Part shown: one piece after another, positions 5,037 through 24,665 of the stretch
Position numbering within the stretch: position 1 is the first letter of the stretch
Layout: every line of letters starts with the position of its first letter
Notes under the pieces: model-generated
What the model saw: the letters and a program-made list of their open reading frames with translations, nothing else
Told to the model about the DNA's origin: nothing
Databases searched by the model: none
Made by a program: the position numbers and the translations under genes
Assembly: GCA_963785725.1 (NCBI GenBank)
Contig: CAWAWS010000033.1
Coordinates: 160,001-224,000 of the forward strand
DNA from: an uncultured delta proteobacterium
GTDB lineage: Bacteria > Myxococcota_A > Polyangia > Palsa-1104
Direction: 5' to 3'
DNA: 64,000 bases

Positions 5037-6728
5037 CTAGAACGGATCCTCGATCTGCCCTTCACCGGCCAAGCTCTTGATCGGCTTCTTCGGCAAGCGC
5101 GCCAGCTCGACCTCGAGCTCGGCGTGCGCGTCGCCGGCGACGACACGCGTGGCGCTGCGGAAGCCCGGCTTGCGAATGACGAGCGCGCGCTTGCCCGCCT
5201 GCGCCGGCAGCTCCGTCGTCAGCGGCACCGTGCCGAGCACGTGATCGCCCTGCACGACCTGCGCGCCGTCGGTGCCGGCGACGTGCAGGCGCACCGGCTG
5301 CGGCGCCGGCGCCGCCACGACCAGCTGCGGCGGCGACGGCATCGTCGGCGCCACAGCCAACGCCGACTCACGCGTCACCACCGGCATCGGCGGCGAGATC
5401 GGCGGCGCCGAGGCGGTCATCGTCATCTGCGTCATCTGCGGCGCCCGACCGTCGCCGAAGCGGATCACCGTCAGCGCCACGATGAGCGCCGCCGCGCACG
5501 AGCCGGCCACGATGATCGCCCGCCGATGCCCCTGCGGGCGCAGCGACACCACCGGCAGCTCGATCGACTGCATCTCGCCCGTGGTCCGGCTCAACGTCGT
5601 CTCGGTGCGGTCGAGCAGCGGCACGACCGGGCTCGACGCGACGCCGATCTGCCCCGAGCGCGCCATCGGCAAGGGCGGCGGCACGAACGGCGACTCCTGC
5701 GCCATCGTCACTTCCAGCTCCGCCAGCTCCGCCGGTAAGTCGTCGTGCTCTTCCAGCACCGCGTCTTGGTCGAGCGAGGGCAAGAGCTCGACTTGCGCCG
5801 CCGACGGCATCTCCAGCGTGGCGATGAACACGCGCTGCCGATCGGACGTGCCGCGCCGCTCGCGCACGATCGGCGCCAGCGCCTGCACCACTTCGCCGCA
5901 GCTCTGAAAGCGATCTTCACGATTGCGCGCCAGCATGCGCAGCACGATCGTGTCCAGCTCGGCCGTGATGTCCGGCCGCATCGACGACGGCGCCGGCGGA
6001 TTGGCGTCGCGAATGCGGCGCAGCGTCTGCAAGTCGTCCTCGCCGCGAAAGACGCGCCGCATGGTCAACAGCTCGTGCAGCACGATGCCGAGCGAGAAGA
6101 TGTCCGACCGGCGATCGACGGGATCGCCTTCGGCCTGCTCCGGCGACATGTAACTGATCTTGCCCTTGAGCGTGCCCGTGCGCGTCAGATCGTCGCGCAT
6201 GTGGCTGGCCGCTTTGGCGATGCCGAAGTCGAGCAGCTTCACGTCGCCCGTCGCCGTCATCATGATGTTCGACGGGCTCACATCGCGATGCACGATCTCG
6301 AGCGGCCGCCCTTCGCCGTCGTGCAGCGCGTGCGCATAATCGAGCGCGCTCGCCACCTCGGCGACGATGCGGCAGGCGATCTCGACGGGAATCAGCCGCT
6401 TCAAGTTGGCGACGCGGCGAGCGACCTGCACGAGGTCGAAGCCTTCGATGTGCTCCATCGCCAAGAACGGCTGGCCTTGCATGGCGCCGAACTCGAACAC
6501 GCGCACGATATTGGGATGTCGTAAGAGAACGCTGAGCCGCGCCTCCGCTAAGAACATCTTGACGAAGCTGGAGTCGCGCGCGACTTCGGGAAGGATGCGC
6601 TTGACGACACAGCGCTGCCCGACTGAGCCGCCTTCGTGCAGCATTGCTTCATAGACAATCGCCATTCCGCCCCGACCGAGCACCTTACCCAGTCGATATT
6701 TTGCGAGAGGCTGAACACTCATTGTCAC
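5037..6728 (-). CDS. Hanks-type Ser/Thr protein kinase with TM helix and C-terminal PEGA-like domain
   Basis: LGRGGMA, VVKRIL, HRDVSPSN, DFGIAK, YMSPEQ, DIFSLG motifs; hydrophobic IIVAGSCAAALIVALTVI; LGTVPL...LVIRKPGF. Start could be ATG 6722. Confidence 0.95.
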   Translation of the reverse strand: MTMSVQPLAKYRLGKVLGRGGMAIVYEAMLHEGGSVGQRCVVKRILPEVARDSSFVKMFLAEARLSVLLRHPNIVRVFEFGAMQGQPFLAMEHIEGFDLVQVARRVANLKRLIPVEIACRIVAEVASALDYAHALHDGEGRPLEIVHRDVSPSNIMMTATGDVKLLDFGIAKAASHMRDDLTRTGTLKGKISYMSPEQAEGDPVDRRSDIFSLGIVLHELLTMRRVFRGEDDLQTLRRIRDANPPAPSSMRPDITAELDTIVLRMLARNREDRFQSCGEVVQALAPIVRERRGTSDRQRVFIATLEMPSAAQVELLPSLDQDAVLEEHDDLPAELAELEVTMAQESPFVPPPLPMARSGQIGVASSPVVPLLDRTETTLSRTTGEMQSIELPVVSLRPQGHRRAIIVAGSCAAALIVALTVIRFGDGRAPQMTQMTMTASAPPISPPMPVVTRESALAVAPTMPSPPQLVVAAPAPQPVRLHVAGTDGAQVVQGDHVLGTVPLTTELPAQAGKRALVIRKPGFRSATRVVAGDAHAELEVELARLPKKPIKSLAGEGQIEDPF

Positions 6729-6733
6729 CTATG

Positions 6734-6763
6734 AGTTTATCGACGGTAGCGTAATAGCGTCAA
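6734..6763 (-). promoter_or_regulatory. sigma70-type promoter candidate for the kinase gene
   Basis: Minus strand TTGACG-18nt-TAAACT in the AT-rich divergent gap. Confidence 0.45.
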
Positions 6764-6801
6764 TCGCTGTCTTAAGGACTATGTTAAGATGAGGAGTGCG
6801 A

Positions 6802-7464
6802 ATGCGCTTGCGTCATCCAATGTACGTACTGTCGTTATGCGTACTCGTGAATGCTCTCTGTGCCGCGCGCGCGCATGCCAAACCGACGACAAACGAGCTG
6901 GCCAGGGCCCACTTCGAGCTCGGACGGGCTCAGTACAAACACGGTGACTATGAAGGCGCGCTGCGCGAGTTCGACGAGTCCTTCAAGCTACAACAAGCGC
7001 CTTTGCTGCTCTATAACGCCGGATTGGCAGCGCGCAAAGCCGGGCATGACGCAGTCGCGTTGCACCGATTTGAAGATTATCTAAAACGCGCGCCCGACGA
7101 CGCCGCCGAGCGCAGCGAAGTACAACGTTATGTCGATGAGTTGCACGCGGCCGGGATTACGGAGGAGCCGCAAACGCCGGCGGTCGTCGCGCCGCCGCCG
7201 GTCGTCGCGCCGCCGCCGCCGCTGACGCCGGTTCCCGTCGTCGTCGCGCCGCCTGCGTCAGATTCGCCGCACCCGGTGCCCGTCTACAAAAAGTGGTGGC
7301 TGTGGACGACCGTGGGCGTCGTCGTCTTGGCCGGCGTTGGTGTCGGTGTCGGCTTGGCGTTGTCGCAGGGCGATAACTTCAAACCGACATTGCCCGACGT
7401 CTCGCTCAATTCGCTGCCGGCGCACGCCGCCGCGTCATTGACGTTCCGCTTGGCGCGCCACTAA
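6802..7464 (+). CDS. Exported tetratricopeptide-repeat protein with Pro-rich linker and C-terminal TM
   Basis: Signal peptide; ARAHFELGRAQYKHGDYEGALREF and LLYNAGLA TPR motifs; PVYKKWWLWTTVGVVV TM; GAGGAG RBS. Confidence 0.85.
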   Translation: MRLRHPMYVLSLCVLVNALCAARAHAKPTTNELARAHFELGRAQYKHGDYEGALREFDESFKLQQAPLLLYNAGLAARKAGHDAVALHRFEDYLKRAPDDAAERSEVQRYVDELHAAGITEEPQTPAVVAPPPVVAPPPPLTPVPVVVAPPASDSPHPVPVYKKWWLWTTVGVVVLAGVGVGVGLALSQGDNFKPTLPDVSLNSLPAHAAASLTFRLARH

Positions 7465-7526
7465 GCGACGCCGAGAATTCCTTAAGCGCGCATTGCGCGA
7501 ATGCCAAGCATTCGTGCGCGGTCGTT

Positions 7527-8207
7527 TTACGAGCCGGGCGCCCACTGAAAGGGCAATGGCAACTTTGCGATCTGCGTAAGCGCCTCCTCTTGCCAGTGCG
7601 CATTCGATCGCTGCAGCGGCAAGAGCGCGTCGTAAGCCGACAAGAGCCAGTGCACGTAATCGTCGACGGTGAACGGCTGCTCGCGCGGCTGCAGCGCGGC
7701 CGCCTCGTCCCAGCGCTCGACGACGCGCAGATAGAGCGCGCGCGCTTGCAGATCGACGAGGACGGCGTCGGCGAGCGCGCCTTTGTCGGCTTCGAAGCGC
7801 GCGCGCTGCGGCGGCGGACAGAGCGCGTGCCCCAGAAAGTCGACGCCGGTCGGCGCGCGCCACGCCGAATGCAGCGGATAGACGCGGCAGGCGAGCGGAC
7901 GCGCCGCGTGCACGCCGCAGCGATGGGCTTGGCCGAGCGACATGAGCAGCGCGCAGGCGCCGTTCGGCTGTTTGCGCAGGAGGAACGCCTGGCGCGGACC
8001 GCCGCGATGGAGCGTGAACGACTCGGCCCAATCGTCGGGTGTCGTGCGCACGGTGACGAGCGACGACCAGGGCACGGCGAGCGCGCGCAACAGGCGCCAC
8101 AAGTCGTGACCATTGACGGGCACGACGTACTCGAAGCAGCACGGCGTCGTGCAGCCGAAGCAGGCCGACGCGCTCGCGGCCTGGCCGTGGACGACGGGCA
8201 GCTTCAT
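7527..8207 (-). CDS. YkgJ-family (CxxCxxCC) cysteine-cluster protein
   Basis: CFGCTTPCC, GACALL, RCGVHAARPLACRVYP; ATG 8207 overlaps the upstream TGA (ATGA). Confidence 0.85.
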   Translation of the reverse strand: MKLPVVHGQAASASACFGCTTPCCFEYVVPVNGHDLWRLLRALAVPWSSLVTVRTTPDDWAESFTLHRGGPRQAFLLRKQPNGACALLMSLGQAHRCGVHAARPLACRVYPLHSAWRAPTGVDFLGHALCPPPQRARFEADKGALADAVLVDLQARALYLRVVERWDEAAALQPREQPFTVDDYVHWLLSAYDALLPLQRSNAHWQEEALTQIAKLPLPFQWAPGS

Positions 8208-8758
8208 CGGGCGGCGGTCATCCACGTGAGGTAGTCGTCGATGACGTGGCGACGGCCGCTGCGCGCGACGGCCTCATTCCAGCGCCCGCGAGCGGCGGCG
8301 TCGGCGGCGGATTCGGCGACGGCAGCGTCGATGTCGGCGCGCGCGTCGCCGATTCGCGCGCGCCAGGCGGCGGCGAGCGGCGGCGGGCAGGCGGCGTCGT
8401 TGCCGAGCGCGACCTGCGGCGCGGCGGTCGGCAGATCGGCATCGGCGGCGGCGGCGAGCGCGACGTGCCACGGGTAGACGCGACAAGAGAGCGGGCGAAC
8501 GGCGTGCACGCCGCAGCGTCGCGTCGTGCCCAACGAGACGGCGAAGACGCAGCTGCCGTCGCCGGCGTGGCGCAAGCGGAAGCCGTAGCGCGGGCCGTCG
8601 GCGGCGAGCAGGAAGCCGTCGTCGTCGCTGACGACGGCCGCGAACGACGACCACGACAGGCCCAGCGCGGCTTGCAGGCGGCCCACGTCGGCGGCGCCGA
8701 GCGCGACCGCGCGGCCGACACAGCAGGGCGCGGCGCAGGTGACGCACGGCGAGCTCAT
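8204..8758 (-). CDS. YkgJ-family (CxxCxxCC) cysteine-cluster protein
   Basis: CVTCAAPCC, GSCVF, RCGVHAVRPLSCRVYP. Confidence 0.85.
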   Translation of the reverse strand: MSSPCVTCAAPCCVGRAVALGAADVGRLQAALGLSWSSFAAVVSDDDGFLLAADGPRYGFRLRHAGDGSCVFAVSLGTTRRCGVHAVRPLSCRVYPWHVALAAAADADLPTAAPQVALGNDAACPPPLAAAWRARIGDARADIDAAVAESAADAAARGRWNEAVARSGRRHVIDDYLTWMTAAR

Positions 8759-8765
8759 GCGACCG

Positions 8766-10040
8766 CTAAGGCTCGGCTTGCGCGCGCAGGCGACCGTCGA
8801 GCTCGGTCACGGCCGCGTGCACCGCCGGCTTGTCGGCGAGCGACAGCGCCAAGAGCTTCCACGGCGCGCGCTCGTGCGGCAGGAAGAAGGCCTCGCGCGC
8901 CAGCAGCCGCACGCCGTCGCGCCGAACGGCTTCGGGCGCCGACTGCATGAGATCGTAGCCGCAGCCGTAGTCGTTGCCGAAGCCGGTCAGATAGTCGTGC
9001 CACAGCTGCAGCGCGCGCTCGGGCTGGCGACGCGAGGCGACGGCGACACGCACTTGCGCCGCGTAACGCCACAGCTTGTCGCTCGCGCAGGCGGCTTCGA
9101 CGCGCGCCGCCGGCACGGCGAATTCGGCGGCGCTCGCCGGAAAGATCGCGCCCAAGTGCGCGCGCACGAGGTCGAGCCGCAGCGTCGGCGGGCCGAGCTC
9201 GGGCGCGCGCTGCGCAAAGCTATCGCGCGCCATCGCCTGCGCCCGGCGCGCGTCACCGAGCGCCAAGAGCGAGCGGTAGACCAAATACTCGGCCACGTCG
9301 TTGAGCTCGGCGTCGGGCACGTCGCCGCGGCGGATGGCGTCGCCGGGAATCTTGCGCGGCACCTCGGCGTCGAAGAGCGTCTCGCACAGCGGCAGCGCCG
9401 CCGTTCGCTCGCCGAGCGCGCGCGACAGCCAGTCGAGGTAGATCGACGCCAGCGACGGCAAATGCGCCAGCTGTAGGAGGCGCGCGTAGGCCAGCACGCT
9501 GGCGCGCACGTCGGGCTTCGTCAGCAGCGGATCGCCGCGCCGGCCGAGCTCGTCGAGCGCCCCCAAGTGGAAGTCGTAGGCGAAGACCAACAGATCCGCC
9601 GTCGGCCGCTGCGCCAGCGACGGATCGCGCGCCACCGTCGCCAGCAGGGTCGCCGCCGGGTGCGCGTTCAGATCGACGCCGAGCTGCCCGGGCGCCGGGC
9701 GCGCCGGGCCGAGCCGCTTGGCCGCCTGGCGCAGCTCGACGACGAAGGCAGCGTCGGCATCGGGCGCGAACAGCGTCTGCGCCAGCACATCGCCGGCGAC
9801 GAGCGCGCGTTCGAGCGGCCGGTCGGCCAACAGCGGCCACAGCGCGCGGACGAGGCGCGGATCGAGCCCGCGTCGTGGCAGCTGGCCGAGAATGCGCTTC
9901 AGCTGCAGGGCCGGCGGCTCGTCGAAGCGCGCGTCGCGCGGGGTCGCCGCCGGATCGAGCACGACCGGCGGCACGGTCGCCAAGATCGCCGCCGTCGCCG
10001 GCAGTCCGAGCGCGCGCGCTTTGTCGACGATCGTCGTCAT
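8766..10040 (-). CDS. Hypothetical, probably alpha-helical protein (424 aa)
   Basis: Protein-like Leu/Ala-rich composition; ATGA overlap with the upstream HATPase stop, 7-nt gap to the downstream gene. Confidence 0.75.
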   Translation of the reverse strand: MTTIVDKARALGLPATAAILATVPPVVLDPAATPRDARFDEPPALQLKRILGQLPRRGLDPRLVRALWPLLADRPLERALVAGDVLAQTLFAPDADAAFVVELRQAAKRLGPARPAPGQLGVDLNAHPAATLLATVARDPSLAQRPTADLLVFAYDFHLGALDELGRRGDPLLTKPDVRASVLAYARLLQLAHLPSLASIYLDWLSRALGERTAALPLCETLFDAEVPRKIPGDAIRRGDVPDAELNDVAEYLVYRSLLALGDARRAQAMARDSFAQRAPELGPPTLRLDLVRAHLGAIFPASAAEFAVPAARVEAACASDKLWRYAAQVRVAVASRRQPERALQLWHDYLTGFGNDYGCGYDLMQSAPEAVRRDGVRLLAREAFFLPHERAPWKLLALSLADKPAVHAAVTELDGRLRAQAEP

Positions 10041-10720
10041 GCGGGCGGCAGCTCGACGCGGAAGCAGGAGCCGCGGCCGAGCTCGCTCTTGACCGCCAAG
10101 CGGCCGCCGAGCGCGGCGACGGTGTCGCGGACGATGGCCAAGCCGACGCCGGCGCCGGCGCCGCGCTTCGTCGAATAGAGCGGCTCGAAGATGCGCTGCA
10201 CTTGGTCGGCGGGGATGCCGCTGCCGCTGTCCTCGATCTCGATGCGCGCCCAGCCGTCATCGCCGTGGCCGATGCGGATGGCGAGGCGATTGTGGTCGCG
10301 ATCGCCGCGCGGACCGGGCGACATCGATTGCGCGCCGTTGAGCAGCAGGCTGACCAAGAGCTGGCCCAGCTGCCGCTCCGTCGCCAACACCAGCGGTGCG
10401 GGCGCGAACGCGCGCACGAGCCGGGCATGCCGCGCGATCTCGCTCGCCGTGACGTCGAGGACGCGATCGGCCACGGTCGCGACGTCGAGCGGCGCCGGCG
10501 CACGCGCGTCATCGCCGCCGAAGAGCGCGAGGTAGCGCGCGAAGCCGGCGATGCGGGCGGTGTCCTCGGGCAAGAGCGGCTCCAGCGCGCCGGCGCGGCC
10601 TTGCGCCGCCGCGTGCGCGCGCAGCCGTTCGAGCAGCGACGGCAGCGTCGCCGCCATCGCCGTCAGGTTCGCGGCCACGAAGCCCACGCGATCGCGCGCC
10701 GCGCCGTCGTCGTCAGCCAC
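10037..10720 (-). CDS. Stand-alone histidine-kinase-like HATPase_c protein
   Basis: N box LLLNGAQS, G1 IEDSGSGI, F IFEPLYSTK, G2 GAGVGLAIV, SELGRGSCFRVELP. Start GTG 10720 is inferred; the ORF track fuses it to the giant upstream gene. Confidence 0.75.
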   Translation of the reverse strand: MADDDGAARDRVGFVAANLTAMAATLPSLLERLRAHAAAQGRAGALEPLLPEDTARIAGFARYLALFGGDDARAPAPLDVATVADRVLDVTASEIARHARLVRAFAPAPLVLATERQLGQLLVSLLLNGAQSMSPGPRGDRDHNRLAIRIGHGDDGWARIEIEDSGSGIPADQVQRIFEPLYSTKRGAGAGVGLAIVRDTVAALGGRLAVKSELGRGSCFRVELPPA

Positions 10721-10758
10721 GGGCCGTCGTCCGCAGCCCAGCGTCGCCGGACGTGTCG

Positions 10759-13700
10759 TTAGGCCGGCTTCTTGCCATTCGCGCCCGTGCCGCCGGCCGG
10801 AGCCGCCGCGCCGCCACCGCCGCGCCGCCGCCCGCCGGCGCATCCCGCCGCCGCCGCCCGCGCCGGCACCGCCGCCCGCCGGCGCATTCCCGCCGCCGAG
10901 ACCGCCCGCCATCGCCAGCTCCAGCGGATCAGGCGGCGCCAGGAACTTCGCCGTGAACCCCTCGTCGAGGAAGATGTTCCAGTTCGCCGCCTGTTGCATG
11001 ATCGGCGCGATCGTATCGGGCACGCGCTCGGCATCCTCCAGCGGCGGCTGAGTCGGCGGATTGAAGTTGGCGTTCCCGGCGTGCAGCGGCCCGTCGCCGC
11101 CGCCCATCGTCACCCAAATCGAGCCCAACGCCGACCCGATGGCGTTCGCGTCCAGCCGCGGCTGCGTCATCCGCAGGACGTTGATCTGCGCGATCCCGCT
11201 GAAGCCGACCATCTTCGTCGCCCGGCGAATCTGATCGACGACCGGCTGCGCCTGCGCCTTCCACATCGCGAACAGCTCTTCCGGCTTCTTCCCCGGATTC
11301 GCCTTTTGCAGCTTCTGCAGCTCCGCGATCTTCTTCGCCGAGACCTGCGAGCGATTCTCGACCGGCGACGCGAACGGAATGGCGTCGAGCTTGAGCACGC
11401 CCTCTTGCACCGAATCCCAGCCGAGAATTTTCGAGAAGCTGAACTTCGCGGCCGCTTCGTCCCACTTCATCATCTTGGGTGCCGGTCCAGCCGCGCCTTT
11501 TGCCGGCGGCGCGCCGTTCGCGGCGGCCGCACCGTTCGCCGGTGCCGCCGCGCCACCCGGTGCTGCCGCGCCACTCGCGCCCGCGTGACTGGCGCCGGCT
11601 CCGCCGGCCGCGCCCGCTCCGCCGGCGCCCGCGCCGCCGCCGCCCGCATTTCCCGCGACTGCCGGATTCGCCGCGCCGGCACCCGCGCCGCCGCCCGCGC
11701 CCGCATGGGCGGCCGCGCCGTTTGCGCCCGCGCCGCCCGCCGCATTCGCACCGGCACCGCCGCCGGCCGCACCCGCAGCAGTCGCGCCGCCGCCCGCTGG
11801 ATTCGCCGCGCCCGCGCCACCGCCTGCCGCGCTTGCCGGACCCGCGCCGCCGGCATTCGCCGCGCCGGCGCCGCCCGCATTCGCTGCGCCCGCGCCGCCC
11901 GCATTCGCCGCGCCGGCGCCGCCCGCCGCGTTCGCCGCGCCGGCACCGCCGCCGCCCGCCGCATCCGCGCCGGCCGCGCCCGCACCGCCGGCCGCGCCCG
12001 CGCCGTCGGCCGCCGGCTTGCCATCGGCCCCCGCTTTGCCATCCGCGAGCGGCTTGCCGTCGGGCCCGACTTTGCCGTCCGCGCCCGGCTTGCCGCTCTT
12101 GGCCTGCACCTGCGTGATGACCGTCGTCATCTGCACGAGCCCCGGCGCGCCCGCATTGAACGCCGCTGCCATCGCCATCCAGAACGCCGGCGCCGGCACG
12201 ACACCGGCATCGATCGTCGTCAGCTTCGCCTGCACCTGCGCCGCCGGACCCAAGCGATCGAGCGCCACGCGCAACGTCTTCGCCATGTCCGCCGCCACCG
12301 CGATCGCCGCCAGCTTCGAATTGATGAACGCCGACTTCTCGGTGTCCGCCATCTTCTCGACTTCGGCGATCAAATACTGCCCCGCCTTCGAGCCCTTGTT
12401 GTTCTCCTTGAACTTGGCGAACAGCTCGAGCGCCTTGATCTGCTCGTCGGACAGCGAATAGCCGGGATCGAAGCCCGCCGCCGGCTTGTACTCCTTGCCG
12501 ACGTACAAGTTGCCCGCATACAGCTTGCCCGCGTAGTCCTTCGCCGGCGGCAGCGTGTCCTCGGGCTTGGCCGCGTCGTGCAGCTTCTGATACTCCTGCA
12601 CGACGTCGCCCCAGACCTTCGCTTCGAAGTTGTAGAACTTCTTCTGCGCCAGCTTCTCCTTGAACGACGCGAACGTCTCGCCTTCGCGCTTCTGCTTGAC
12701 GAAGTTCGAGTAGGCGATGCGCGCCTGATCCGCCGTGCCGGCCGCGAAATCGCCCGGCGGCGGCATCAGGTGACGCTGATGCGCGTCCTTAGCGGCGGTG
12801 TCGAGCTTCTTGGTCGCGGCCTCGGCGCCATGCGTCTTCTGATCGATCTTGGCCTTGTATTCGTGCTCGTTCTTGGCGAGCTGCTCCTTCTCTTTGTCCT
12901 CGTCCGTCTTGCCCTTGTCGGCGACCGCCTGCACCGTCGGATTGAGCGGACCCGCGGAGACTTCGTCCTTCTTCGCGCCGGCGTTCTTGTCCTTGGCGCC
13001 GCCTGCCGCCGGGGCACCGCCTGCCGCACCCGCCGCGCTCGCGCCACCCGCGGCGCCGCCGGCCGCAGCCGCGCCGCCCGCAGCCGCGCCGCCGGCCGCA
13101 GCTGGTCCCGCAGCCGCCGGCGCCGGCGCCCCCGCACCCGCTGCACCGCCGGCGCCCGCTTTGCCGCCGGCCGCGCCACCAAACGTCGCCTTGCGCGCGT
13201 CGAGCGACTTCGCCTGCGAGATGATTCCGGCCGGACCGGCAGCGACGGCCGGACCGGGCGCGCCGACGGAGCTGCCACCGCCACCGCCCTTGCCGCCGCC
13301 GCCACCGCCGTCGCCTTTGGGCATCGACCCGCCGCCGCCGCCGCCCTGCTGCGTGCCGCGATTGCTGGCCGAGCCCGGCTCGGGGCTCGGCGGCGACGCG
13401 CCCGTCGGTGGCGCGGCGTTGCCGGCGGCCGGCGGCGCCGCCGGCTGCGCCTTGGGAATCGCGCCCGCCGCCGTCGCCGACACGCCCGGATCGGACGGCA
13501 ACGCCGGCAGCGTCACCGCCGGCAACACCAACAGCGGCGGCGGCAGCGGCACCGGCGGCGGCACCGGAATCGGCGCCGGCTTCGCCAGCACGGGCGGCAT
13601 CGGCGGCTCCGGCGGCGGCGGCGGCACCGGCGCCTTCTCCTGCTCCGTCGGCTTCTCGGTCGCGCCCTCTTTTTGCGCCTGCTTCTCGGCCTCGGCGACG

Positions 13701-16700
13701 TGCTTCTGCGCCTTGGCGCCCTCTTCTTGGTGATGCTTGACCTTGTGCTCGTGCTCAGCCTTCTGCTGATGCACTTTCTTCTCGTGCTCTTGCTCGGCTT
13801 TGGCGTAGTCGGCCTGCTGCTTGGCGACGTGGCGAACGTGCTCCTCGTCCTGCGCCTTCTGCTTCCGCTGCACCTCGGCCAGATCGGCCTGGTACTTGGC
13901 CGTGATGAGCGCCTGCACCTCTTCCCGCTCGGCGACGACGTTGACGCCCGTGTCGGGGTTGATGCCCATGTGCGCGATCTGCGCGCGGCGCCACTCGAGC
14001 ACGAGACGACCGGCGCGCGCCGGATCGCTCTTGGACGCGATCGCCACCGCCTTGGCCAGCTTCTCCGTCGGTGACGTGCAGGCGTCGGCGGGATCGATCT
14101 GCTCGGCGTTGTCGGCGTGCTCGCGATAGAAGTCCCACGCCTTGCCGGGAATGCCGAACATGGCGTTGAAGTCGACGGGCGCCGCCGTCATGCCGTTTTC
14201 CCAGCCCGGCGGCAGCTCCGCGAACTGCCCCGCGGCCGCCTTCATGCGCTGCAACACGGGCGCGATCTTTTCCTTCGCCTCTTTGTTGCCCTGATCGTCG
14301 GAGGTCTTGCTGGCGCCGTCTTTGACGCCGTTCTGCATCTTGGTGAGGCCGTCGTCGCGCAGCGACAGGCCGTTGACGAACTTGGTGCCGCCGGGACCGC
14401 CGAGCTGCAGGTCGATGGGCTGGAACGGCTGGAACGAGCCCAAGTCGATGTGCGCGAAGTTCACCGACGCCAACGTGTACTTCTTGTCGATGATCGTGAA
14501 CCAGCAGATCTCGGCGTGCATCGTCGCGATCAAGTTGGCGATGAGATCGAGCGACGCGGCGACGAACGGGTTGATCTGGATCTTCGCGCCTTCGCCCTGG
14601 CGATAGGTGCCGGTGATGCCGGCGCCCAAGTCGAGGTTGAGGCGCGCCACGATCTCGGCGCCGATGCCGACCGACGCCGACGCGATGAGCAGCTGGATCT
14701 CGCCGACGATCTGCACCGAGAACGAGAGCGCGAGATAGGAGCCCATCGAGATCTGGCCGCCGAAGCTGATCGGCGGCAGGCCGCCCGAGTCGAGCGCGTC
14801 GAGCCCGCCTTCGAGCTTCGGGTTCTCCAGCTTCACCTTCGGCATGCGATAGCCGGCGGCGACGCCGAAGCCGAGGCGCAACGCCAAGCTCGCCACGCCG
14901 ACGGTCGCCAGCGGAATGTCGATGTCGTTGTGCAGCGCGGCCAGCTGGTGATCGCTGTCGTCGGCGTGCTTGTCGGTCGGCGTGATGCCGCCGATCTGCA
15001 GGCCGTCTTTCTGCGAATACTTGACGGCGACGACGAGCTCCGTCGACTCGTCGGGCGTGAGCGTGATCGAGCCCTCGAAGACGAAGCCCGCGCCGTAGCC
15101 GATCTTGACGGTGGCGGTCTTGATGTACTGGTTGTTCTTCGGGTTGAGCGTGGCGCCGACTTCGATGCCGTTGCCGTCGAGCTGGCCGATGACCTCGGCC
15201 TTGTCGAAGCCGGGCACGGTGACGGGAAACTTGATCCTCGCGTAGAGCCCGGTGCCGGACGCGTAGCCGGCTTCGAACGTGCCTTTGCCGTCCTTTTGGA
15301 ACGGCGAGGCGAACTGCGTCGTCAGCTTGGCGCTCAAGCCGGCGCCGGGCGCGTACGAGACGACGATCGTCGGATCTTCGAGCGCGAGGAACTCGGGCGG
15401 AACGAGGTGCAGCTCGCCGCTGGCCTGCGTCAGCTTCCAGTTGGCGATGGCGACTTTGATGCTGCCCGACTTGATGAAGCTCGACAGCGGTGAGCCGGCG
15501 ACGGGCACGACCTTGAGCTCGGCCGACGTCGACAGGCCGAGGCCGTCGCCGGCGGTGACGACCGCTTTGCCCTCGACGTCGACGCCGGGGAAGGCCGCTT
15601 TGACGTTCAGCTCGCCCGACGAGAACTTGTTCTGCACGACCGAGATGCTGCCGTCGGCGACGACATCGCCGATCTTGACGTGCTGCACGGCCAAGGTCGC
15701 GTCGATGCCCTTGCCGTTGTGATAATTGCCGACGAACGTCGCCTGGCAGTCGCTGATGCCGGCGATGGGGATGCCGTTGATGACGGCGTTGACGCCGAAG
15801 TCGAGGTCGGTCTTCTCGCCGCCGCCGATGCCGATGCTGAACTTGGCGGTGACGCTCGAGAAGGAGACGTAGTTCTTCATCCCCTGCGCGAGCTTGGTGG
15901 CGTCGACGACGCCGTTGAGCTTGAAGCTCGCCGGCTCGCCACCGCCGGCGGCGGCGTCGACGGTCATGTCGACCTGCGCCAACCCGGCCACGTCGGCCGA
16001 CGCGCCGCCGTCGACGGTGAACTTCTTGGTCGCGCTCGTCCAGCTGGCGTTGATGGCGCTCTTGCCGACGTCGAACTTGACCGCGCCCATCGTCGGCGGC
16101 GGCTTGAGCGTGCCTTTGATGCTGATGGCTTTGTTGGCGTACTCGAACGCCAAAATCGAGCCGGGGCCGAGCTCTTTGACGACCGGCGACATGTCGATCG
16201 AGGTCTTGATGGTGACGTCGCCCTTGGCGTACTCGATCTCGGCGACCTGGAACGCGTCCGAGACCTTGCCGAGGCCTTTGAGCTTGGTGACCTTGCCCTT
16301 GACGTCGATGGCGTTGTTCGTGACCTTGATGGTGGCTTCGGCGTCGAGGTGCTCCGAGTAAGCCGCGGCCAAGTTGAGCTTGATGCCGTCGCCGGTCGTG
16401 CTGAGCTTGCTGTCGGCGAGCGTGAGCCCGATCTTGGTCGCATCGAAGATGGCGAACGCTTTGGCGTCGACGTTGGCGCTGCCGGTGAGCTTCTTGGCCG
16501 CGTAGTTGAAGTCGAAGGTGCCTTCGCCGACGTTGTCGACGGTCATCTTGCCGGCGATGGCCGCGTGCATGCCGGCGCCGGCGTCGAAGCCGACCGAGCT
16601 GCCGTCGTTGACGGTCAGGTGCGCCGGACCCATGTCGACGGGGACGCTCGACAACAGCTTGCCGTTGACGCCGGTGTTGTTGGCGGTGACGGCGACTTTG

Positions 16701-19700
16701 AGACCCTTCAACGCCGGCGCGGTCATCTCCGCGTCGACGGCGACGTTGAAGGCGCCGGTGCGAATGTTGACGTCGGCGCTCTTGATCGTGCCGTTGACGG
16801 CCTCGGGCACGACGAAGCCGCCGTCGCCCAAGCTGACGGCGCCCGTCTTCCACACGGCGCTGCCGTGCTTGGTCTGGAAGTATTCCGAGGCGGTGATGGC
16901 GACGTCGGTGACTTCAGCGTCGAAGTCGTTGTCGTTGCCGATATGCACTTGGAACTTGCCCGACAGCATCTTCTTGCTGCCCGACGTCCACGTGACCGAG
17001 CCGGTGGCGGTGGTGCCCAAGGTGAACTTGCCGCCGGCGTAGTTGACCTGCATCGGGGCGTGGAAGCCGTCGACTTTGACGCCGGGCAAGCCGCTCGTGA
17101 GCTTGTTGACGGCGGCGTCGGCGTTGATGGTCGCGTTGAACGTGGCTTGGTCTTTGTTGCCGCCGATCTTGGTGATGGCGACGTCGGCCAACGCGGCGAC
17201 GCCGAACTTGATGGTGCCGACGCTCTTGAAGTCGCCGCCGTTGCTCGAGCCCGCCGACGCCTGGACCTTGCCGAGGATGAGGTTGTTCGTCATCGGCGCG
17301 AGCTCGAACTCGCCGTCGGCCGACCAGTCGAGCACGCCTTGGTTCCAGCCGACGCTGGCTTTGGCGCTCGAGCCGCCGCCCGCGCCGTGCGCCTGCAAGT
17401 GGCCGTTGAGGATCTTGTTGGGCAGCAGGTCGATCGTGCCGCCGTCGAGCGTGACGCTGACGCCGCCGGCTTTGATCGTCGTGTCCTTGGCCGCGGTCAG
17501 CGTGCCGGTGATCTCTTTGCCGCTGACCTTCGCTTTGAGCTGCGAGAAGACGACCTGGCCGCTGATGGGCGCGACGCTGACGGCGACCTGCGTGGCGTCG
17601 AACGTGAACGCGTTGGCGCCGGCGGTGCGGTCGTAGACGACGTGCATGTCGCCGCTCAGCTGGCTGACGACCGAGGCGAGCGGAATGTGCGTGTCGGCCT
17701 TGATGTCGATGGGCTTGCCGGCGCCGGCCGCGATGACGGTGACGGCGATGTCGGGCAGCCCGCCGAGCTTGACGATGCCGCTGGCGCTGCCGATGAGCCC
17801 GGCGGTCTTCTCCATCGTGAGCTGCGACGCGCTGTCGATGGCGATGTCGACGCCGCCGACGCTGATCGTCTTGCCGCCGTGAATCGTCGCGCCGTAGCCG
17901 GTCGAATCGAGGTGCGCCTCGTCGATGGTCAGCCCTTGCAGCGGCCCGGCGAGCGCGACGTCCTTGGCCGTGGCGCTGATGCCTTTGGCGTTGTCGTAGC
18001 CGAGGTCGAGCGACGCGCCGCCGGCGACGATGCCGTCGAGCGCCTTGAACTTGACCGTCGTCTTGGCGTCCCAATTGCCGGCGACGTACTTGAACGAGAA
18101 CGGCGTCTCTTCGGTGAACGCCGACTCGGTGACGGTGCCGGCGACGTTGGCGCCGGTGACCTTGCCGCCGTCGATGATCGGCGTGGCCTTGGCCTTGACC
18201 GTCCCGCCCAGCACATCGACGGTCACCTGTCCGTCGGTCAACGAGAGCTGCTTCTGCGCGTTCATCTTCAGCGTCAACGAGCCGTTGATGGTCGCGCCCG
18301 GCACCGTCAGCGAAATGCCGTTCTCGGGCACCGTCAAGGTCGCGCCGAGGCCGCCCTCTTGGTCCTCGAGCGTGATCGTGCCGGTGAAGATGCTGCCGAC
18401 GGTGATCTTGGCCTCGCCCGTCGCCGAAAAGTGCGGCTTGCCGCCGGTGACGCTGACCGCGAGCTGCATTCCGCCCATGACGGTGGCGCCGTCGGGCAAC
18501 AGGCGCTGCAGCGCGCCGGCGTCGAGCGGCGCCGAAGCCGTGACCGCCTCGCCGATCTTGTTGACGGTGATGCCGCTCGGGAAGACGCTGGCGAGCGGCC
18601 CCGACGCGAAGTTGGCGTTCTTGCAGCTGAGCGAATTGCCGCCGCCTTCGTTCGAGGCCGTCAGCTGGCCGGTCATCGCGCCGCCGGTCAACCCGGCCAG
18701 GTCGACGGCGACGGTGCCTTCGACCTTCAAGGCGCCGCTGCTGTCGTAGCTGACGTGGCCGGTGGCGCTGGCGGCGCCGCCCGCGCCCATCTGCACTTCG
18801 ACCGAGCCGGTGATCTGCGGCGCGCCCGCGCCCTTTTCGAAGTGCAGCTGGCCGTTGTTGATCTGGCCGGTGATGGGACCGACGGTGACGGGGCCGCTGG
18901 CGAACTGAAGGTCGCCCGACAGCGTGCCGTTGGCGTAGGTGACGTTGGGGACGCTGACGTACTGCGCGATGCGCGGGTCGGATGCCTTGATGTCCGTCGC
19001 GTGCACGCTCAACGGCGACGCGGCGCCGCTCGTGTAACCGACTTTCAAGTTGCCGGCCAGCTGCGGCACGAGCGCGTGCACGTCGACGTCGACCTCCGCC
19101 TGCGTCGACAGCTGCCCGTTGGCGTACTGCAGGCCGAGCGACACCGGCGCGCCCGGAAACGCCGTGATCTTGAGCGACGCCGAGCCCTTGAGCTGCGACA
19201 GATCGTAGGTGCCGCCGGCGCCGGGGATGGTCAGGCTGACTTGATCGAGCGAGCCTACCGACGCCAACCCTGCCGGCGCGATGTTCGAGCCGGTGATCGT
19301 GATGTCGCCGAGCGCGGTGCCCAAGTTGCGCACGTCGGTGGCGCCGACGGCGACGGACGCGTTGAGCTGGCTCAGCTGACCGAGCGTGCCGCCCAAGTCG
19401 AGGCTGATCGGCCCGCCGGCGGTGCTCGCCGAGACCTGCCAGCCGGGCTTCACGTCGATGTTGATGTCGGGCAGCGTGACGCGCGGGACGGCGAACTTGA
19501 CGCCGATCGATCCGGTGAGCGAGCCGCCCGGATCCATCGCCAAGTTCTGCCAGGTGCCGGTGACGAGGCCGCCGAGCAAGCTGACGGTGACGTTGCCGCT
19601 GACGCCGAACGTGTTGGCGCCGAACGCGTCCTTGACCGAGACGGTGAGTCCGGAAACCGAGATGCCGGGGACGCCGGCGTTGGCGATGGTGATCGAGCCG

Positions 19701-22135
19701 TCGAGCTGGCCGCCTTGGTACGCGATCGTCGCCGTGCCGCTGATGACGGCGGCGCCGCCGGGTCCGGCCGTGAACGTGCCGGTCGCGTCGCCGGTGACGT
19801 TGGCGCCGTCGATCTGCAGCGTCGACGCCGTCAACGCCAGCGAGCCGCCGCCGGGCAGCGCCAGCGTCACCGGCGCGCCCAAGTGCAGCGCCGCCTGCAG
19901 CTTGCCGTCCTCGACGCGCACGTCGTCGAAGATCGCCTGCGCCAGCTGCGGCATCGTGAACTTGACGTCTTTGCCGACGACACTGAGCTTGCCGGCGGCG
20001 TAGCTGATCTGCGCCGTGCCGCTCAGTCCCGGCAGATCGATCGGGATCTCGGCGCCGGCGGTGACGGTGATCGTCTTGCCGTCCCAGGTGATCGTCGCCT
20101 GGACGCTGGCCTGCAAGCCGGCGATTTGGATCGTGCCGTTGAGCGTGGCGTTGAAGGTGATGCCGCCCGGCCCGGCGCTCAAGATCGCCGTCATGTGCAT
20201 CGTGCCGCCGGCCAGGCCGTTGTCCATGCGCACGTCGGCGCCGCCGGACAAGGTGACGTCGACGCCGCCGCCCGGCGACGACGCGACGTCGATGACGAAG
20301 TCCGTCGCCTGCACGGGGAAGTCTTTGCTGAGCAGATCGCCGGGCGCGAGGTTGGCCGTGCCTTTGAACCCGTTGGCGTCGAGCTGCACCGACACCTGCT
20401 TGACGACGGCGCCCGGCACGTTGATGGGCACGATCAAGGTGCCCGAGACGGCGCCGCTGGCGTCGACGGTCAGCGTGCCGGCGGTGCCGTGCAGCGCGCC
20501 CGACTCGACGCTCGCCGACAGCGTGCCCGAGTCGACCTTGTCGCCGGTCGCTTTGAACGTGGCCGTGTTGATCTTGAGCGGCCCGATGCTCTGACCGACG
20601 GTGATCTGCTTCTTGCCGTCGCCGATGTCCTGCGCCTGCGGCAAGTGACTCGAGAGATCGAGCCCTTTTTGCAGCACATTGAGCACCCACTTCGACGGCG
20701 TGCCGGCGGCGCCGCCGGCCGGCGCCGCGCCGCCGCCGCTGTCACGCGAGATCGTGCCCGCCGGCGCGCGCTCGCGCACCTGCAGCGCGTTCGCGCCCGG
20801 CGCCGCGCCGCTCGTGACCGCCTGCGCGACGCGATCGGCCTCGTTCTCGACCGCCGATCCCGGCGCCGACAGCGACGCCGAAGCGGCCGGCGCCGCGCCC
20901 GCCTGCTGCGCGACGTGGGTCAGCTCGTGCGCCAACAGCCGCTTGCCCGCCAGCGTCGCCGGATCGTACTTGCCGGCCGCGAAGAAGACGTCCTCACCCT
21001 GCGTAAATGCCGTCGCGCCTAGTCGTTCGGCCTCGGCCGCGGCGTTGGCGTCGTCGTGCACGCGCACGCCCGACAGCGACGTCCCTAGCCGCGGCTCGAG
21101 CTCGGCGCGCACCGAGCTCGGCAGCGGCTTGCCTTGCGCGGGCCCGTTGCCACCGTTCGGGCCCAATCCACCGAGGCGGGCAGCGACGGCGGCGCGCGCT
21201 TCGCGACCGTCGGCGATGCGGCGGCCGCCGAGCGCATGCAGCGCCGTCGCGCGCACGCGGGCGGCATGCGCGTCGCCTTCGGGGCCGAGCAGCGCCTGCA
21301 TTTCACTGCGCGCCGCGCCCCGTTCGAGCAGCAGCACGAGCGCATCGGCCAGCCGGCGCGCCTCGCCCATGACGGCGTCGACGGCGGCATGCGTCGGCTC
21401 GTAGGCGGCGAGCGCCAGCGGCCGCGACGTGATGCGCGGCGCGCGACCGAGCGCCGCCCGCACCGTCATCGACGCGCGCGCGCGCTCGGCGACGAGCGGC
21501 GCCGGCCCGCTCAGCGGACCCAAGCGACGCAAGATCGAGTGCGCCTCCCGCTCGGCGCCTGCCGACGGCGCGCCCGGCCGCGACGACGGCGACGCCGTGC
21601 GCTGCTGCGCCGCGTGGATCGCCTCGTGCACCAGCACCGACGGGCGCGCTTCACCGCTGCCGACGAACACGCGGCGACCGAGCGTGAACGCGCTCGTGCT
21701 CAGCCGTGCCGTCACCAAGTCGACGAGCGGGCTCGTCACCAGCTCGACGTCGCCGAGCGGCTGCGCCAACGCGGCCTCGGCGATGGCGCGCGAATCGGCC
21801 GGCAGCGTCGCGCGCGCCAACGACGCATCGATGCTGTCCAGCCCGACGAACGCTTGCTCCCACAAGCTCGTCGCCAGCGGCGCACCCAAGTCGCGGACCA
21901 GCTCGAGATAGGCGCGCCGGCGCTCGGACGGCGGCAGCCCCTGCCGCAACAGCGCCGCCAACGCCAGCGGATCGGCGCCGCGATCGAGCAGCATGGCCCA
22001 GATGGCGCGCGGCGAGCCCGACTGCCACGGCTGCTCGTCTTCGAGCGCGCGGGCACGACGCGGCAGCGGCTGCGGCCGAGCGGGCGCTGCTACATCATGA
22101 TCGAAGAGCCGCTGCACTCGGTCCGTCCCCCACAC
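10759..22135 (-). CDS. Giant DUF4157 (eCIS core domain) protein, ~3,790 aa after frameshift correction
   Basis: Canonical DUF4157 text VRVHDDANAAAEAERLGATAFTQGEDVFF...LLAHELTHVAQQ (HELTH 20915-20929) plus an earlier divergent copy AFTLGRRVF...LVHEAIHAAQQ (21614-21628). Likely true stop TAA 10759-10761, reached after two 1-nt deletions near 10820-10845. Start uncertain (22135 or 22117). Confidence 0.85.
11690..12010 (-). repeat. Coding Gly/Ala low-complexity repeat (GGAGAANA-type units)
   Basis: Several consecutive GGAGAANA units in the translation; gcattcgccgcgcc recurs in the DNA. Confidence 0.75.
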
Positions 22136-22239
22136 GCGGTCAGCGAGGCTGTCCTAGCGTATCCGTCTCAGCAGGTTATCGCCATGCTAAAGAAAAAGTT
22201 GCTAGCGACCTGCGTCACCTCTGCGAGAGCTATCTAAGA

Positions 22240-23073
22240 CTATGAATCTACGTCAGCTTTCCAACCGAGCGAGATCGCCCGCGCGGACCAGCTGGCGGCG
22301 TGATCGGCGGCACTTTCGAGCTGCGTCAGCGCGCCATCTTCGCGATAGAGGCGCGCCAGTCGAGCGGCGGCGGCGGCACTGCCGAGATCGGCGGCGCGCA
22401 TGAGCCAGGCGAGCGCGCGCGCCGTGCCGCCGGGACGCGCGCCGTGCCGCAGGCCGAGGCGAAAGCAGCCTTCGGCGCTGCCGGCGTCGGCGGCGGCCTG
22501 CTCCCAGCGCGCCGCGGCCTCGGGATCGCGCGCGCCGCCGACGCCGTCTTCGAACAGCCGCGCCAGCTCCAGCTGCGCGGCGACGACGCCACGCTCGGCC
22601 GCGACGCCGTAGAGCATGCGCGCGCGCCTCGGGTCGACGGCGACGCCGAGGCCGCGCAAGTGGGCGGCGCCGAGGAGCCAGAAGGCCTGCTCGTCGCCGG
22701 CGGCGGCGGCGCGACGCAGCCAGTCGACGCCGGCGGCGGCGGTCGCCGGCTCGAGCAGCAAGAGGCCGCCGAGCGCGACGGCGGCGGCGGCGAGCGCGGC
22801 GTCGGCGGCGCGTTCGAGGTAGGCGAGGCCGCGCGCGCGATCGACCGGTCCACCACGGCCGGCGAGCATCATGAGGCCGACGGCGAGCGCCGCGTGCGGG
22901 CTGCCTTGGTCGGCGCCGAGCTGCATGAGGCCGCGCCCTTCACCGACGGCGACGGCATCGTCGCAAGCGGCGAGCTCGCAGGCGGCGATGTACAGCCGCG
23001 CGGCGCGCCGATCGTCGTCGGGCTCGACGAGCGCAGCTTCGGCGTCACGGCGCAGCTTGTCGAGATCGGGCAC
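22240..23073 (-). CDS. Sel1-like repeat protein
   Basis: GRGGPVDRARGLAYLERAA, GLGVAVDPRRARMLYGVAAERG, AQLELARLFEDGVGG..DPEAAARW. Confidence 0.85.
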   Translation of the reverse strand: MPDLDKLRRDAEAALVEPDDDRRAARLYIAACELAACDDAVAVGEGRGLMQLGADQGSPHAALAVGLMMLAGRGGPVDRARGLAYLERAADAALAAAAVALGGLLLLEPATAAAGVDWLRRAAAAGDEQAFWLLGAAHLRGLGVAVDPRRARMLYGVAAERGVVAAQLELARLFEDGVGGARDPEAAARWEQAAADAGSAEGCFRLGLRHGARPGGTARALAWLMRAADLGSAAAAARLARLYREDGALTQLESAADHAASWSARAISLGWKADVDS

Positions 23074-23155
23074 GCCGCGAGAATACGGCGAGCGGCGCGC
23101 GCGTGCCCAGCCTCTTTGTCACGCTTCGTCGCCGAACGTTACATATACTGCCGCG

Positions 23156-23935
23156 GTGTTTTCCGTCGACGTCGACGCGATCGATCTGGCGCCCATCCTC
23201 GAACAATTCGCGCGCGACGGCTACGCGCGCCTCGGCCGCGTCGTCGCCGACGAGACGCTGGCGGCGCTCGGCACGCGCGTCGACGACATCATGGCCGCGC
23301 GCGTGCGTCACGACGGGCTCTTCTTCCAGCGCGACTCCGACAGCGGCCGCTACGAAGACCTGAAGTACGGCGCCGGCTGGCAAGGACCGTCGCCCGACTA
23401 TCGCAAGATCGAGAAGCTGGAGCTCGATCCGCTGTTTCGCGCCTATATCTGCAATCGGCTGCACGAACGGATCGCGCGCGCCCTCATCGACGGGCCGATT
23501 TCGCTCTATCGCGCCGTCCTGTTCACGAAGAGCGCGACCGGCGGCACGCTCCTGCCGTGGCATCAAGACGGCGGGCTCTTTTGGGGCATCGATCGCATGC
23601 CGTTTCTGCAGCTGTGGACGGCGCTCGACGACTGTCCGCTCGACGGCGGCTGCCTCGAGGTCCTGCCGGGCACGCATCGCGCCGGGCTGACGACGATCCA
23701 AGGCGGCGTCGTGCCCGACGATCGGCTGCTCGCCGTCGACGCCGAGAAGAACGCGCTGCCGCTGCCGGCCAAAGCGGGCGAGATGATGCTCGTTCACAAC
23801 CACTTGTGGCATCGCTCGCTGCAGAGCCACTCGGGCCGGCGCCGCTCGACGCTGTCGGTGTGCCTGATGACGGCGGCGACGCGCTGTCTGCGCAAGAAGC
23901 GGGCGCCGCGGCAGTTCTTTCGCGTCTTCGAGTGA
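23156..23935 (+). CDS. Phytanoyl-CoA dioxygenase (PhyH) family Fe(II)/2OG dioxygenase
   Basis: FARDGY, PWHQD, WTALDD...GCLEVLPGTH, LWHRS, RRSTL; start moved to GTG 23156 to avoid overlapping the Sel1 gene. Confidence 0.9.
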   Translation: MFSVDVDAIDLAPILEQFARDGYARLGRVVADETLAALGTRVDDIMAARVRHDGLFFQRDSDSGRYEDLKYGAGWQGPSPDYRKIEKLELDPLFRAYICNRLHERIARALIDGPISLYRAVLFTKSATGGTLLPWHQDGGLFWGIDRMPFLQLWTALDDCPLDGGCLEVLPGTHRAGLTTIQGGVVPDDRLLAVDAEKNALPLPAKAGEMMLVHNHLWHRSLQSHSGRRRSTLSVCLMTAATRCLRKKRAPRQFFRVFE

Positions 23936-23977
23936 CACGTCACAGTCGGCCGCCGACGGAGCTGCTACTGTCCGTAG

Positions 23978-24665
23978 GTGGATCTCACGCTGCTCGACAT
24001 CGTCGCTCGCACCGTCTGCGGCGTCGTCGGCGTCAGCGCCGTCGGCGTCACGCTGCGGCTGATCGGGCGCAAGGTCAAACGTGACGCCGAGGCGCTCGCC
24101 GAGGTCGGCGAAATGCGCGCCGTCCATGCGGTCCGGCTCGTCAATGTCGTGCCCGACGATTTGGTGCGCACGAGCGGCGTCGCGCTACCGCGGGGCGAGC
24201 TGGTCAAGACGCGCTTCAGCGGCCGCGCCTGCATCGCGCATCAGTGCTCGCTCATCGTCAATCCCGGCGTCGACGCGCGGGTGTTCGAGACCAGCGAGCA
24301 CGGCGAGCTCTATATCGAAGACGAAGGCGCGCGCGCGCTCGTACGAGGCGAGATTCCCGTCATCGCGCTGGTCGACCGCGCCAGCGGTGAATGGACCAGC
24401 GAGACGCTGCCGCCGCACGTTCGCGAGTGGCTGCAAGAGGCGACGGCGTCCGACGAGTGGGAACACTCTCGCCATTTGCGCTGGGTGGAACGCTGGATCG
24501 AGCCCGGCGAGCGCGTCTGCGTCGTCGGCGCCGCGACGCTGCAGCTCGACGAAGGCGGCGGTCGGCGGCGACTACCGGCAATCGGCGGAGCTGTTGACGT
24601 TCGAGACCGCCGACGACGCGCCGCTGTCGGTCAGCAACGATCCGACGCTGCTCGTCACTTCGTGA
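23978..24665 (+). CDS. Hypothetical membrane-anchored protein (possibly GIDE-like), apparent +1 frameshift near 24552
   Basis: N-terminal TM, LVKTRFSGRACI, ERWIEPGERVCVVG; protein-like text continues in another frame as GGDYRQSAELLTFETADDAPLSVSNDP to TGA 24665; removing one base gives 229 codons. Confidence 0.65.

Follow-up and report, generated by a model that had tools for sequence, protein, structure and literature searches.

The analysed stretch, referred to as the window, comprises 64,000 nucleotides (nt) of contig CAWAWS010000033.1 from an uncultured delta proteobacterium, and the locus considered here is a run of five genes on its minus strand (Table 1). These genes encode a giant protein with two DUF4157 domains, a histidine-kinase derivative (the HATPase), a protein of 424 amino acids (aa) and two CxxCxxCC proteins. 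In a preliminary description they had been taken as one coupled operon and as an orphan cargo cassette of an extracellular contractile injection system (eCIS). All five genes were present and co-oriented, and three of the reported junctions were borne out on the minus strand, namely the ATGA overlap at 10037-10040, the 7-nt gap at 8759-8765 and the ATGA overlap at 8204-8207. The remaining junction, a 38-nt gap between the giant gene and the HATPase gene, did not stand as reported: the TAA at 10761-10759, the 38 nt and the GTG at 10720 exist, but this TAA is out of the giant's frame. The five-gene operon in itself is of little importance. What recurs in other genomes is the giant DUF4157 family, with its exchanged tails, and beside it the tightly coupled pair formed by the HATPase and the predicted solenoid encoded by the 424-aa gene; this pair is real and unnamed, as is its link to DUF4157 cargo.

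Table 1. Features of the locus, in window coordinates.
Feature	Position	Strand	Description or basis
Gene 1, giant DUF4157 protein	10759..22117	-	About 3,790 codons; likely start GTG 22117, likely native stop TAA 10761-10759
DUF4157 copy 1 (eCIS core / PVC-metallopeptidase), HEAIHAAQQ	21593..21805	-	PF13699 E 7e-9 and motif
DUF4157 copy 2, HELTHVAQQ	20894..21127	-	PF13699 E 1.4e-31 and motif
Gly/Val/Thr-rich region of about 1,930 aa	14936..20725	-	Beta-rich by pattern; kept in relatives
Conserved core linking constant body to variable tail	13736..14935	-	38-73% identity in 22 full-length homologues
Two Lys-rich modules between Gly/Ala/Pro linkers	10901..12958	-	12101-12958 and 10901-11503
GC-rich Gly/Ala repeat, probable site of a frame slip	10762..10880	-	Frame analysis; assembly frameshift load; no fused homologue (n=22)
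Gene 2, His-less histidine-kinase derivative	10037..10720	-	227 aa; truncated DHp without H-box, HATPase_c with N, G1, F and G2 boxes
Gene 3, 424-aa protein	8766..10040	-	Unnamed family; predicted all-alpha TPR-like solenoid (AlphaFold2, fold searches)
Gene 4, CxxCxxCC (YkgJ-type) protein 1	8204..8758	-	184 aa, 8 Cys; likely passenger
Gene 5, CxxCxxCC (YkgJ-type) protein 2	7527..8207	-	226 aa, 8 Cys; likely passenger
Sel1-repeat gene 5' of the giant	22240..23073	-	Outside the five-gene span
Promoter-like element 5' of the giant	22176..22201	-	CAAC, about 12 nt, then GCCGATAA-like box; putative role
11-bp hairpin directly 3' of the last stop, between convergent genes	7494..7518	.	Likely transcript end

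Close orthologues of the 424-aa protein were located at 14 loci in a genome scan and at 23 loci in a metagenome scan, some of which are duplicated, and the counts are not independent. The named records among these relatives were Myxococcota (Polyangia, Haliangiales and Kofleriaceae), and a phylum-wide search scoring four candidates per genome was positive in 1 of 400 other genomes. The 424-aa gene is immediately preceded by the HATPase gene in all but one of the loci with upstream DNA (32 of 33), and in the 33rd the HATPase gene is about 100 nt away. On one metagenome contig (L093:948-2792) the two genes are fused in frame, which is either real or an assembly collapse. Twenty-four loci extend at least 800 nt further upstream, and there the giant gene is placed head-to-head with the pair in 15 and other genes are found in 9, with a co-oriented giant gene in none; no CxxCxxCC gene follows the 424-aa gene in any of the 23 loci with downstream DNA. 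The five-gene order is thus not conserved, and among the partners assigned to the giant in the preliminary description, the HATPase and 424-aa genes recur beside it and the CxxCxxCC genes do not. Since the pair lies on the opposite strand (15/24) or away from the giant (9/24), co-transcription with the giant is no general rule.

The giant and the 424-aa gene were each found in 12 of 401 genomes of the class, and 8 genomes carried both. Three genomes in which the pair is distant from the giant nevertheless carry a giant, and among five further pair-bearing genomes the giant's core was present in four, the fifth having the giant's start beside the pair. Two genomes of the same genus have the pair mid-contig, away from the giant, which follows the counterpart of the window's Sel1 gene there; in both, the contig ends inside the giant gene, before its 3' neighbours. 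In a quick family tree made without bootstrap, the window's 424-aa protein was sister to a Haliangiales/Kofleriaceae group in which the head-to-head order prevails.

The neighbourhoods held further toxin-like components. In two genomes of family f17 (L027:727-9288, L029:2-4452), another large tail-like protein, together with a cysteine-rich partner, is encoded facing the pair on its far side, and the pair is therefore part of a toxin island there. A family of 243-250 aa with a weak HEAT signal (L071:11177-11938; L083, L092, L082, L103, L107, L110) follows the giant in genome G271, and in several loci its gene converges on the 424-aa gene; it is a candidate immunity family and was not found in the window's own genome. 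The 424-aa clade itself departs from a toxin-immunity layout, as it is upstream and divergent in relatives and stays similar while the tips of the giants vary. Small genes other than the 424-aa gene follow complete giants.

In the HATPase, the HATPase_c domain was recognised by PF02518 (E 2.5e-20), and N128, D164, G166, G168, F178, G191 and G193 were invariant among 22 aligned members, with the N, G1, F and G2 boxes kept. The claim that it is His-less held throughout: the H-box was absent from all 22 members, and alongside five kinases from its own genome the aligned protein begins where the H-box should be. Some members have a weak or degenerate receiver domain in front of the HATPase. Judged from these residues, the protein likely binds ATP and is likely unable to autophosphorylate in the usual way, and it is not a canonical sensor histidine kinase.

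The 424-aa family comprises 178 clusters at 50% identity. The AlphaFold2 model, built from 98 alignment rows, was all-helical (pLDDT 97.6, pTM 0.95), and a solenoid fold is predicted. No usable match to the protein was obtained in Pfam, NCBIfam, PHROGs, PDB sequences or the ESM Atlas, and Foldseek against PDB and BFVD gave no match to the model at E 0.001. A wide fold search returned TPR-type solenoids, the best with Z 9.4 and a root-mean-square deviation (rmsd) of 6.3 over 255 residues, and weak TPR sequence matches (E about 0.001-0.05) appeared in 3 of the 98 members only; the protein is predicted to be TPR-like, which stops short of establishing membership in a TPR family. No relative was found in viral contigs, and a search for longer fused forms (761-2,170 aa) gave none, which is weak evidence.

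A link to DUF4157 was also observed for paralogues of the 424-aa protein that lack the HATPase, in which a DUF4157 gene is adjacent or one gene away in 7 of 19 loci, mostly tail-to-tail with a gap of a few bases. With seven DUF4157 genes in a genome of 8.9 Mb (PF13699 gave eight matches in these seven genes of the window's own genome), this adjacency is far above chance, though kin inflate it. Further paralogues form arrays behind the pair in giant loci. Three of the paralogue-adjacent DUF4157 proteins were scanned with Pfam, and DUF4157 was the only domain found. The smaller DUF4157 or DUF4157-like neighbours of paralogues (L039:4805-7534, L040:96-2783, L041:16573-18930, L142:612-2657, L144:7779-9458, L140:1-1434) end in helical tails with Gly/Ala-rich hydrophobic hairpins, which by eye suggest membrane-active domains. 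A C-terminal domain common to the giant and these smaller proteins was considered and rejected, as a profile of eight tails, built from divergent tails and possibly weak, missed the giant, three orthologues and the own genome.

The giant belongs to a polymorphic DUF4157 family in which the beta-rich body is constant and the C-terminal tips are exchanged. Both DUF4157 copies, each with an HExxHxxQ motif, scored above the Pfam cut-off and lie at the N-terminal end, with only about 110 residues before the first. The core retrieved 22 homologues of 2,282-5,676 aa; the core had no match in PDB or the ESM Atlas, and the region at 14936-20725 had none in Pfam, NCBIfam or PHROG. This region contains 0.5% Arg, a residue that makes up about 10% of the HATPase, of the 424-aa protein and of the first 470 residues of the giant; in relatives the region carries internal duplications. 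Lys takes the place of Arg there, possibly as a consequence of the export route.

The last 200 aa of 24 giant sequences fell into 16 groups, several of them from partial proteins. An S..T..HSxxE motif ends 7 of the 24 sequences and matches, by eye, the MCF1-SHE signature listed in PMC3482391; the giant of genome G191 ends in Endonuclea_NS_2 (E 9e-4, under the Pfam cut-off), some other tips resemble restriction-endonuclease folds by eye only, and Pfam, run on 13 of the 22 homologues, named no tip in any of them. These tips are putatively toxic. With its constant body and 16 tip groups, the giant family fits the constant-head, variable-tail architecture described in section 13 of PMC3482391. In the window giant, the second Lys-rich module (10901-11503) is the last one, whereas it is internal in all five full-length relatives that have it, and for this reason the window copy is probably tip-less. 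No match to a toxin domain was found in its tail with Pfam, NCBIfam or PHROG. The likely readings are thus that the window allele is disarmed or has no tip, or that its final module acts as an effector that goes unrecognised.

Genes for an injection system were found elsewhere in the window's own genome. Contig C13 carries Pvc16, two sheath genes, two tube genes, CIS_tube and a hub gene, running up to the contig end; an AAA ATPase gene is on C7 and a Baseplate_J gene on C9, and the tube and sheath families match C13 and C7. These genes are spread over G000:C13:1-11400, C9:121000-137000 and C7:785385-797486, and the C13 cluster has split genes, its first sheath gene seemingly among them. The preliminary description had seen no structural gene in the window and had called the locus an orphan cargo cassette, which for the giant agrees with the genome: the window's contig (C33) had no tube, sheath or baseplate-J match, spike families not being part of that search, and the structural genes lie on other contigs. 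The giant is therefore not encoded at or near an eCIS operon, which lowers the standing of an operon-linked eCIS-associated toxin and leaves that of an orphan cargo unchanged. In the same genome, a 345-aa DUF4157 protein with a ribonuclease-like end is followed by a 128-aa barstar-like gene (G000:C39:574068-575557; both recognised by eye), likely an ordinary toxin-immunity pair.

The explanation that we tentatively favour, at a little under an even chance, is that the giant is a polymorphic eCIS effector, that the solenoid is its chaperone or guard, that the HATPase is the ATP-binding switch of the solenoid, and that the CxxCxxCC genes are passengers. The giant, the HATPase and the 424-aa protein may bind one another. 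Expression of the giant would be driven by its own promoter-like element; the solenoid would hold the protein in the producer's cytoplasm before it is handed to the injection system encoded elsewhere in the genome, by which it may be packaged or exported. The DUF4157 domains would process or refold the giant, the tip would do damage in armed alleles, and the His-less HATPase would gate the solenoid through ATP binding.

Several observations weigh against this explanation, and the size of the giant is the main strain, as it is about three times the longest lumen cargo reported in the available portions of the published accounts (1,228 aa, with another of more than 1,100 aa). DUF4157 is present in effectors of the type VI secretion system as well. 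The fold match at Z 9.4 and rmsd 6.3 is generic for helical repeats, and the top match, MalT domain III, is a sensor and not a chaperone. In 12 of the 19 paralogue loci there was no DUF4157 match, four of these abutting the 3' end of Lys-rich helical proteins that are cargo-like by eye. The 424-aa family was not found in the giant-bearing genomes G191 and G279 (each 92% complete), G271 (53%) and G069 (95%, with a weak giant match only), indicating that it is dispensable. Tube genes were present in 40 of 42 genomes of the order and in all five f17 genomes tested, and being nearly universal, they permit a link with eCIS and do not discriminate. The relatives are not independent samples. Finally, no contig bridges the repeat at 10775-10900, where a real frameshift or a local mis-join is possible.

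The HATPase and the solenoid might instead be a signalling module that regulates the giant from a common head-to-head promoter region and does not bind cargo. The head-to-head arrangement seen in 15 of 24 loci, where a short spacer separates the genes, is consistent with this, as are the degenerate receiver domain before the HATPase in some members, the fold matches to MalT domain III and PlcR, and the histidine pseudokinases with regulatory roles that are reported for bacteria. Neither protein has a DNA-binding domain, however, and the HATPase-less paralogues abut the 3' ends of DUF4157-type genes and form tandem arrays, a behaviour as in immunity or chaperone cassettes. A purely regulatory module is considered unlikely, at perhaps one chance in a handful or slightly better.

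A surface or spike-borne filament, with a beta-rich stalk, a DUF4157 domain that cleaves or anchors it and a tip acting on contact, is rather improbable as the nature of the giant. The length of 2,282-5,676 aa, the 1,930-aa beta-type region with its internal duplications in relatives and 0.5% Arg, and the fact that structural genes adjoin the giant in no locus examined would suit such a filament. Against this, no RHS, haemagglutinin or autotransporter family match was obtained, and PMC8213781 describes DUF4157 as strongly eCIS-specific and reports linkers of more than 1,000 aa.

The two CxxCxxCC proteins passed the PF03692 cut-off of 23 narrowly (29.8 and 24.6 bits), and each has a CxxCxxxCC cluster and four further Cys. 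Their genes are paralogues, fused in G236 (357 aa) and split in G131 in unrelated neighbourhoods, and many homologues have the fused length of 337-361 aa. Close homologues were found in 7 of 401 genomes and in none of the 67 genomes of f17, which carries the other three genes. In G236, G131, G010, G110 and G152 the CxxCxxCC genes sit among unrelated genes and have no giant, HATPase or 424-aa gene nearby, an occurrence named in advance as counting against the proposed cassette, and for these two genes the cassette was given up. Contigs of close strains, from two runs of a single study, span the junction of the 424-aa and CxxCxxCC genes, and this adjacency may extend to a sister lineage, as the closest 424-aa homologue (68%) and a homologue of CxxCxxCC protein 2 (67%) are each on a contig of 224,839 nt in ENA, possibly the same one. 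These adjacencies and the tight junctions are what would speak for a functional unit of five genes in a narrow lineage, in which the giant would be modified by the CxxCxxCC proteins; the absence of a CxxCxxCC gene after the 424-aa gene in all 23 loci, the self-contained tandem in unrelated contexts and the sparse distribution of close homologues make this very improbable, and the genes are likely local passengers. The idea of a FliB-like maturation of the giant, by lysine methylation that depends on Fe-S and SAM, gained no support, and only incidental mentions of ykgJ were met in the literature.

As assembled, a single open frame of 4,032 codons runs from 22135 to 10037 and includes both DUF4157 and HATPase_c, and the given sequence has no stop between the giant and the HATPase in the giant's frame. 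The TAA at 10761-10759 lies in another frame, where it terminates a Gly/Ala/Lys-type peptide resembling the giant's linkers. The giant's frame scored as coding down to about 10850 and as non-coding between there and 10700, whereas within the HATPase the score was once more that of coding sequence. The assembly is rich in insertions and deletions, with frame changes in 12 of 52 orthologue comparisons (8 distinct genes), presumably including ileS, rplC and icd, which were recognised by eye. PF02518 was found in none of the 22 full-length giant homologues. A short-read contig of 245 nt from a close strain spans 10529-10773 with 9 substitutions and no gap, indicating that the start of the HATPase, the spacer and the TAA are not confined to this assembly; it reaches only about 14 letters past the TAA. 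Because the linker scores as non-coding, the assembly is indel-rich and no homologue is fused, the fusion is very probably an assembly error, a frame slip in the GC-rich repeat. A real fusion, in which a rearrangement swapped the toxin tip for the HATPase, would agree with the open 4,032-codon frame and with the absence from the window giant of the tip carried by relatives, and is very unlikely given the non-coding score of the linker, the Gly/Ala/Lys-type ending with its TAA in another frame, the 22 unfused homologues and the indel-rich assembly. At the other end, the giant likely starts at GTG 22117 and not at 22135, since six relatives begin at the matching motif.

Among the flanking elements, the Sel1-repeat gene precedes the giant in G103 and G236 and follows it in G271, and it is a steadier within-genus neighbour of the giant than the CxxCxxCC genes. 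The pattern of CAAC, about 12 nt and a GCCGATAA-like box was found ahead of the giant in six genomes (the window's and L066, L068, L072, L035, L034), and the form of the pattern used has a single copy in the own genome; we take the box to resemble the sigma-28 -10 consensus. A sigma-70 promoter scan gave matches no more frequent than chance, and Rfam gave no match in positions 6000-24000. Among the sequencing runs listed as containing this DNA, none was of RNA. The hairpin at 7494..7518 was scored on the plus strand, and as such sites are rarer than in shuffled sequence, the signal is weak.

What selects eCIS cargo, renders it harmless and loads it is an open problem, and a family that tracks DUF4157 and has a confidently predicted fold, together with a His-less kinase, is a testable candidate for the missing cargo-handling step. 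If the solenoid is indeed a chaperone or guard, the effectors that it handles would far exceed the cargo size given in the available portions of the eCIS literature. In its fullest form, the proposal is that the 424-aa solenoid is a new family of dedicated chaperones or guards for DUF4157 cargo in predatory Myxococcota, one clade of which is gated by an H-box-less kinase as an ATP-dependent switch licensing the loading or release of effectors of 3,000-5,700 residues; this we regard as speculative and unlikely to hold in every part. Uncultured soil myxobacteria also offer, in the giant family, a supply of toxin-like tips that have yet to be classified.

Literature on DUF4157, eCIS, myxobacterial kinases, Haliangium and Kofleriaceae yielded no description of this set of genes, within a scope that left out most subscription journals and supplementary locus tables. 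PMC3482391, PMC8213781 and PMC11297309 leave the role of DUF4157 unresolved and report many eCIS toxins without immunity genes.

Of the known families, YkgJ / CxxCxxCC (PF03692) is matched by both small proteins, which exceed the Pfam cut-off and have the Cys cluster; unlike it, the window genes are a tandem paralogue pair that is fused in many relatives. The 424-aa protein has an all-alpha solenoid (residues about 116-420, Z 6.5-9.4) in common with TPR and superhelical proteins such as MalT domain III, APC/C subunits, PEX5 and type III secretion chaperones, but it has no sequence match to them, the rmsd is 4-10 Å and the arrangement alone is common. For the HATPase, the best NCBIfam match was EspC (E 2e-38), which covered the ATPase and the C-terminal helix of DHp and stayed far below the cut-off. 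DivL is a histidine pseudokinase. Like the EspC/EspA-type myxobacterial kinases and pseudokinases such as DivL, the HATPase retains the ATP-binding boxes; it differs from them in that the whole start of the H-box helix is missing and not substituted, in that most members are without a sensor domain, and in that it is always coupled to the solenoid gene.

The giant is comparable to the AlgoCIS cargo proteins Cgo1 and Cgo2, which, according to a preprint (bioRxiv 10.64898/2026.05.27.728243), have an N-terminal region, DUF4157 and a variable C-terminal part. By the same source, Cgo2 (1,228 aa) depends on a disordered N-terminus for its loading, whereas the giant is three times longer and has only about 110 residues before its first DUF4157. 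The closest likeness is to the PVC-metallopeptidase (DUF4157, PF13699) toxins of eCIS/PVC-SS, which have an N-terminal HExxHxxQ and a long linker (PMC3482391, PMC8213781), and with which the giant family has variable C-terminal domains, including MCF1-SHE-like and nuclease tips, and eCIS genes in the genome in common. It is unlike them in its much greater length (2,282-5,676 aa), the two DUF4157 copies of this branch, the constant beta-rich body without a family match, the distance from structural genes, the lack of a recognisable tip in the window giant, and the linked accessory pair for which no description was found. By its head, polymorphism and genome context, the giant belongs with the PVC-metallopeptidase polymorphic toxins. 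In the favoured reading, the known part of the system is an effector of the eCIS polymorphic kind, and the new part is the accessory pair, which likely chaperones or guards the cargo.

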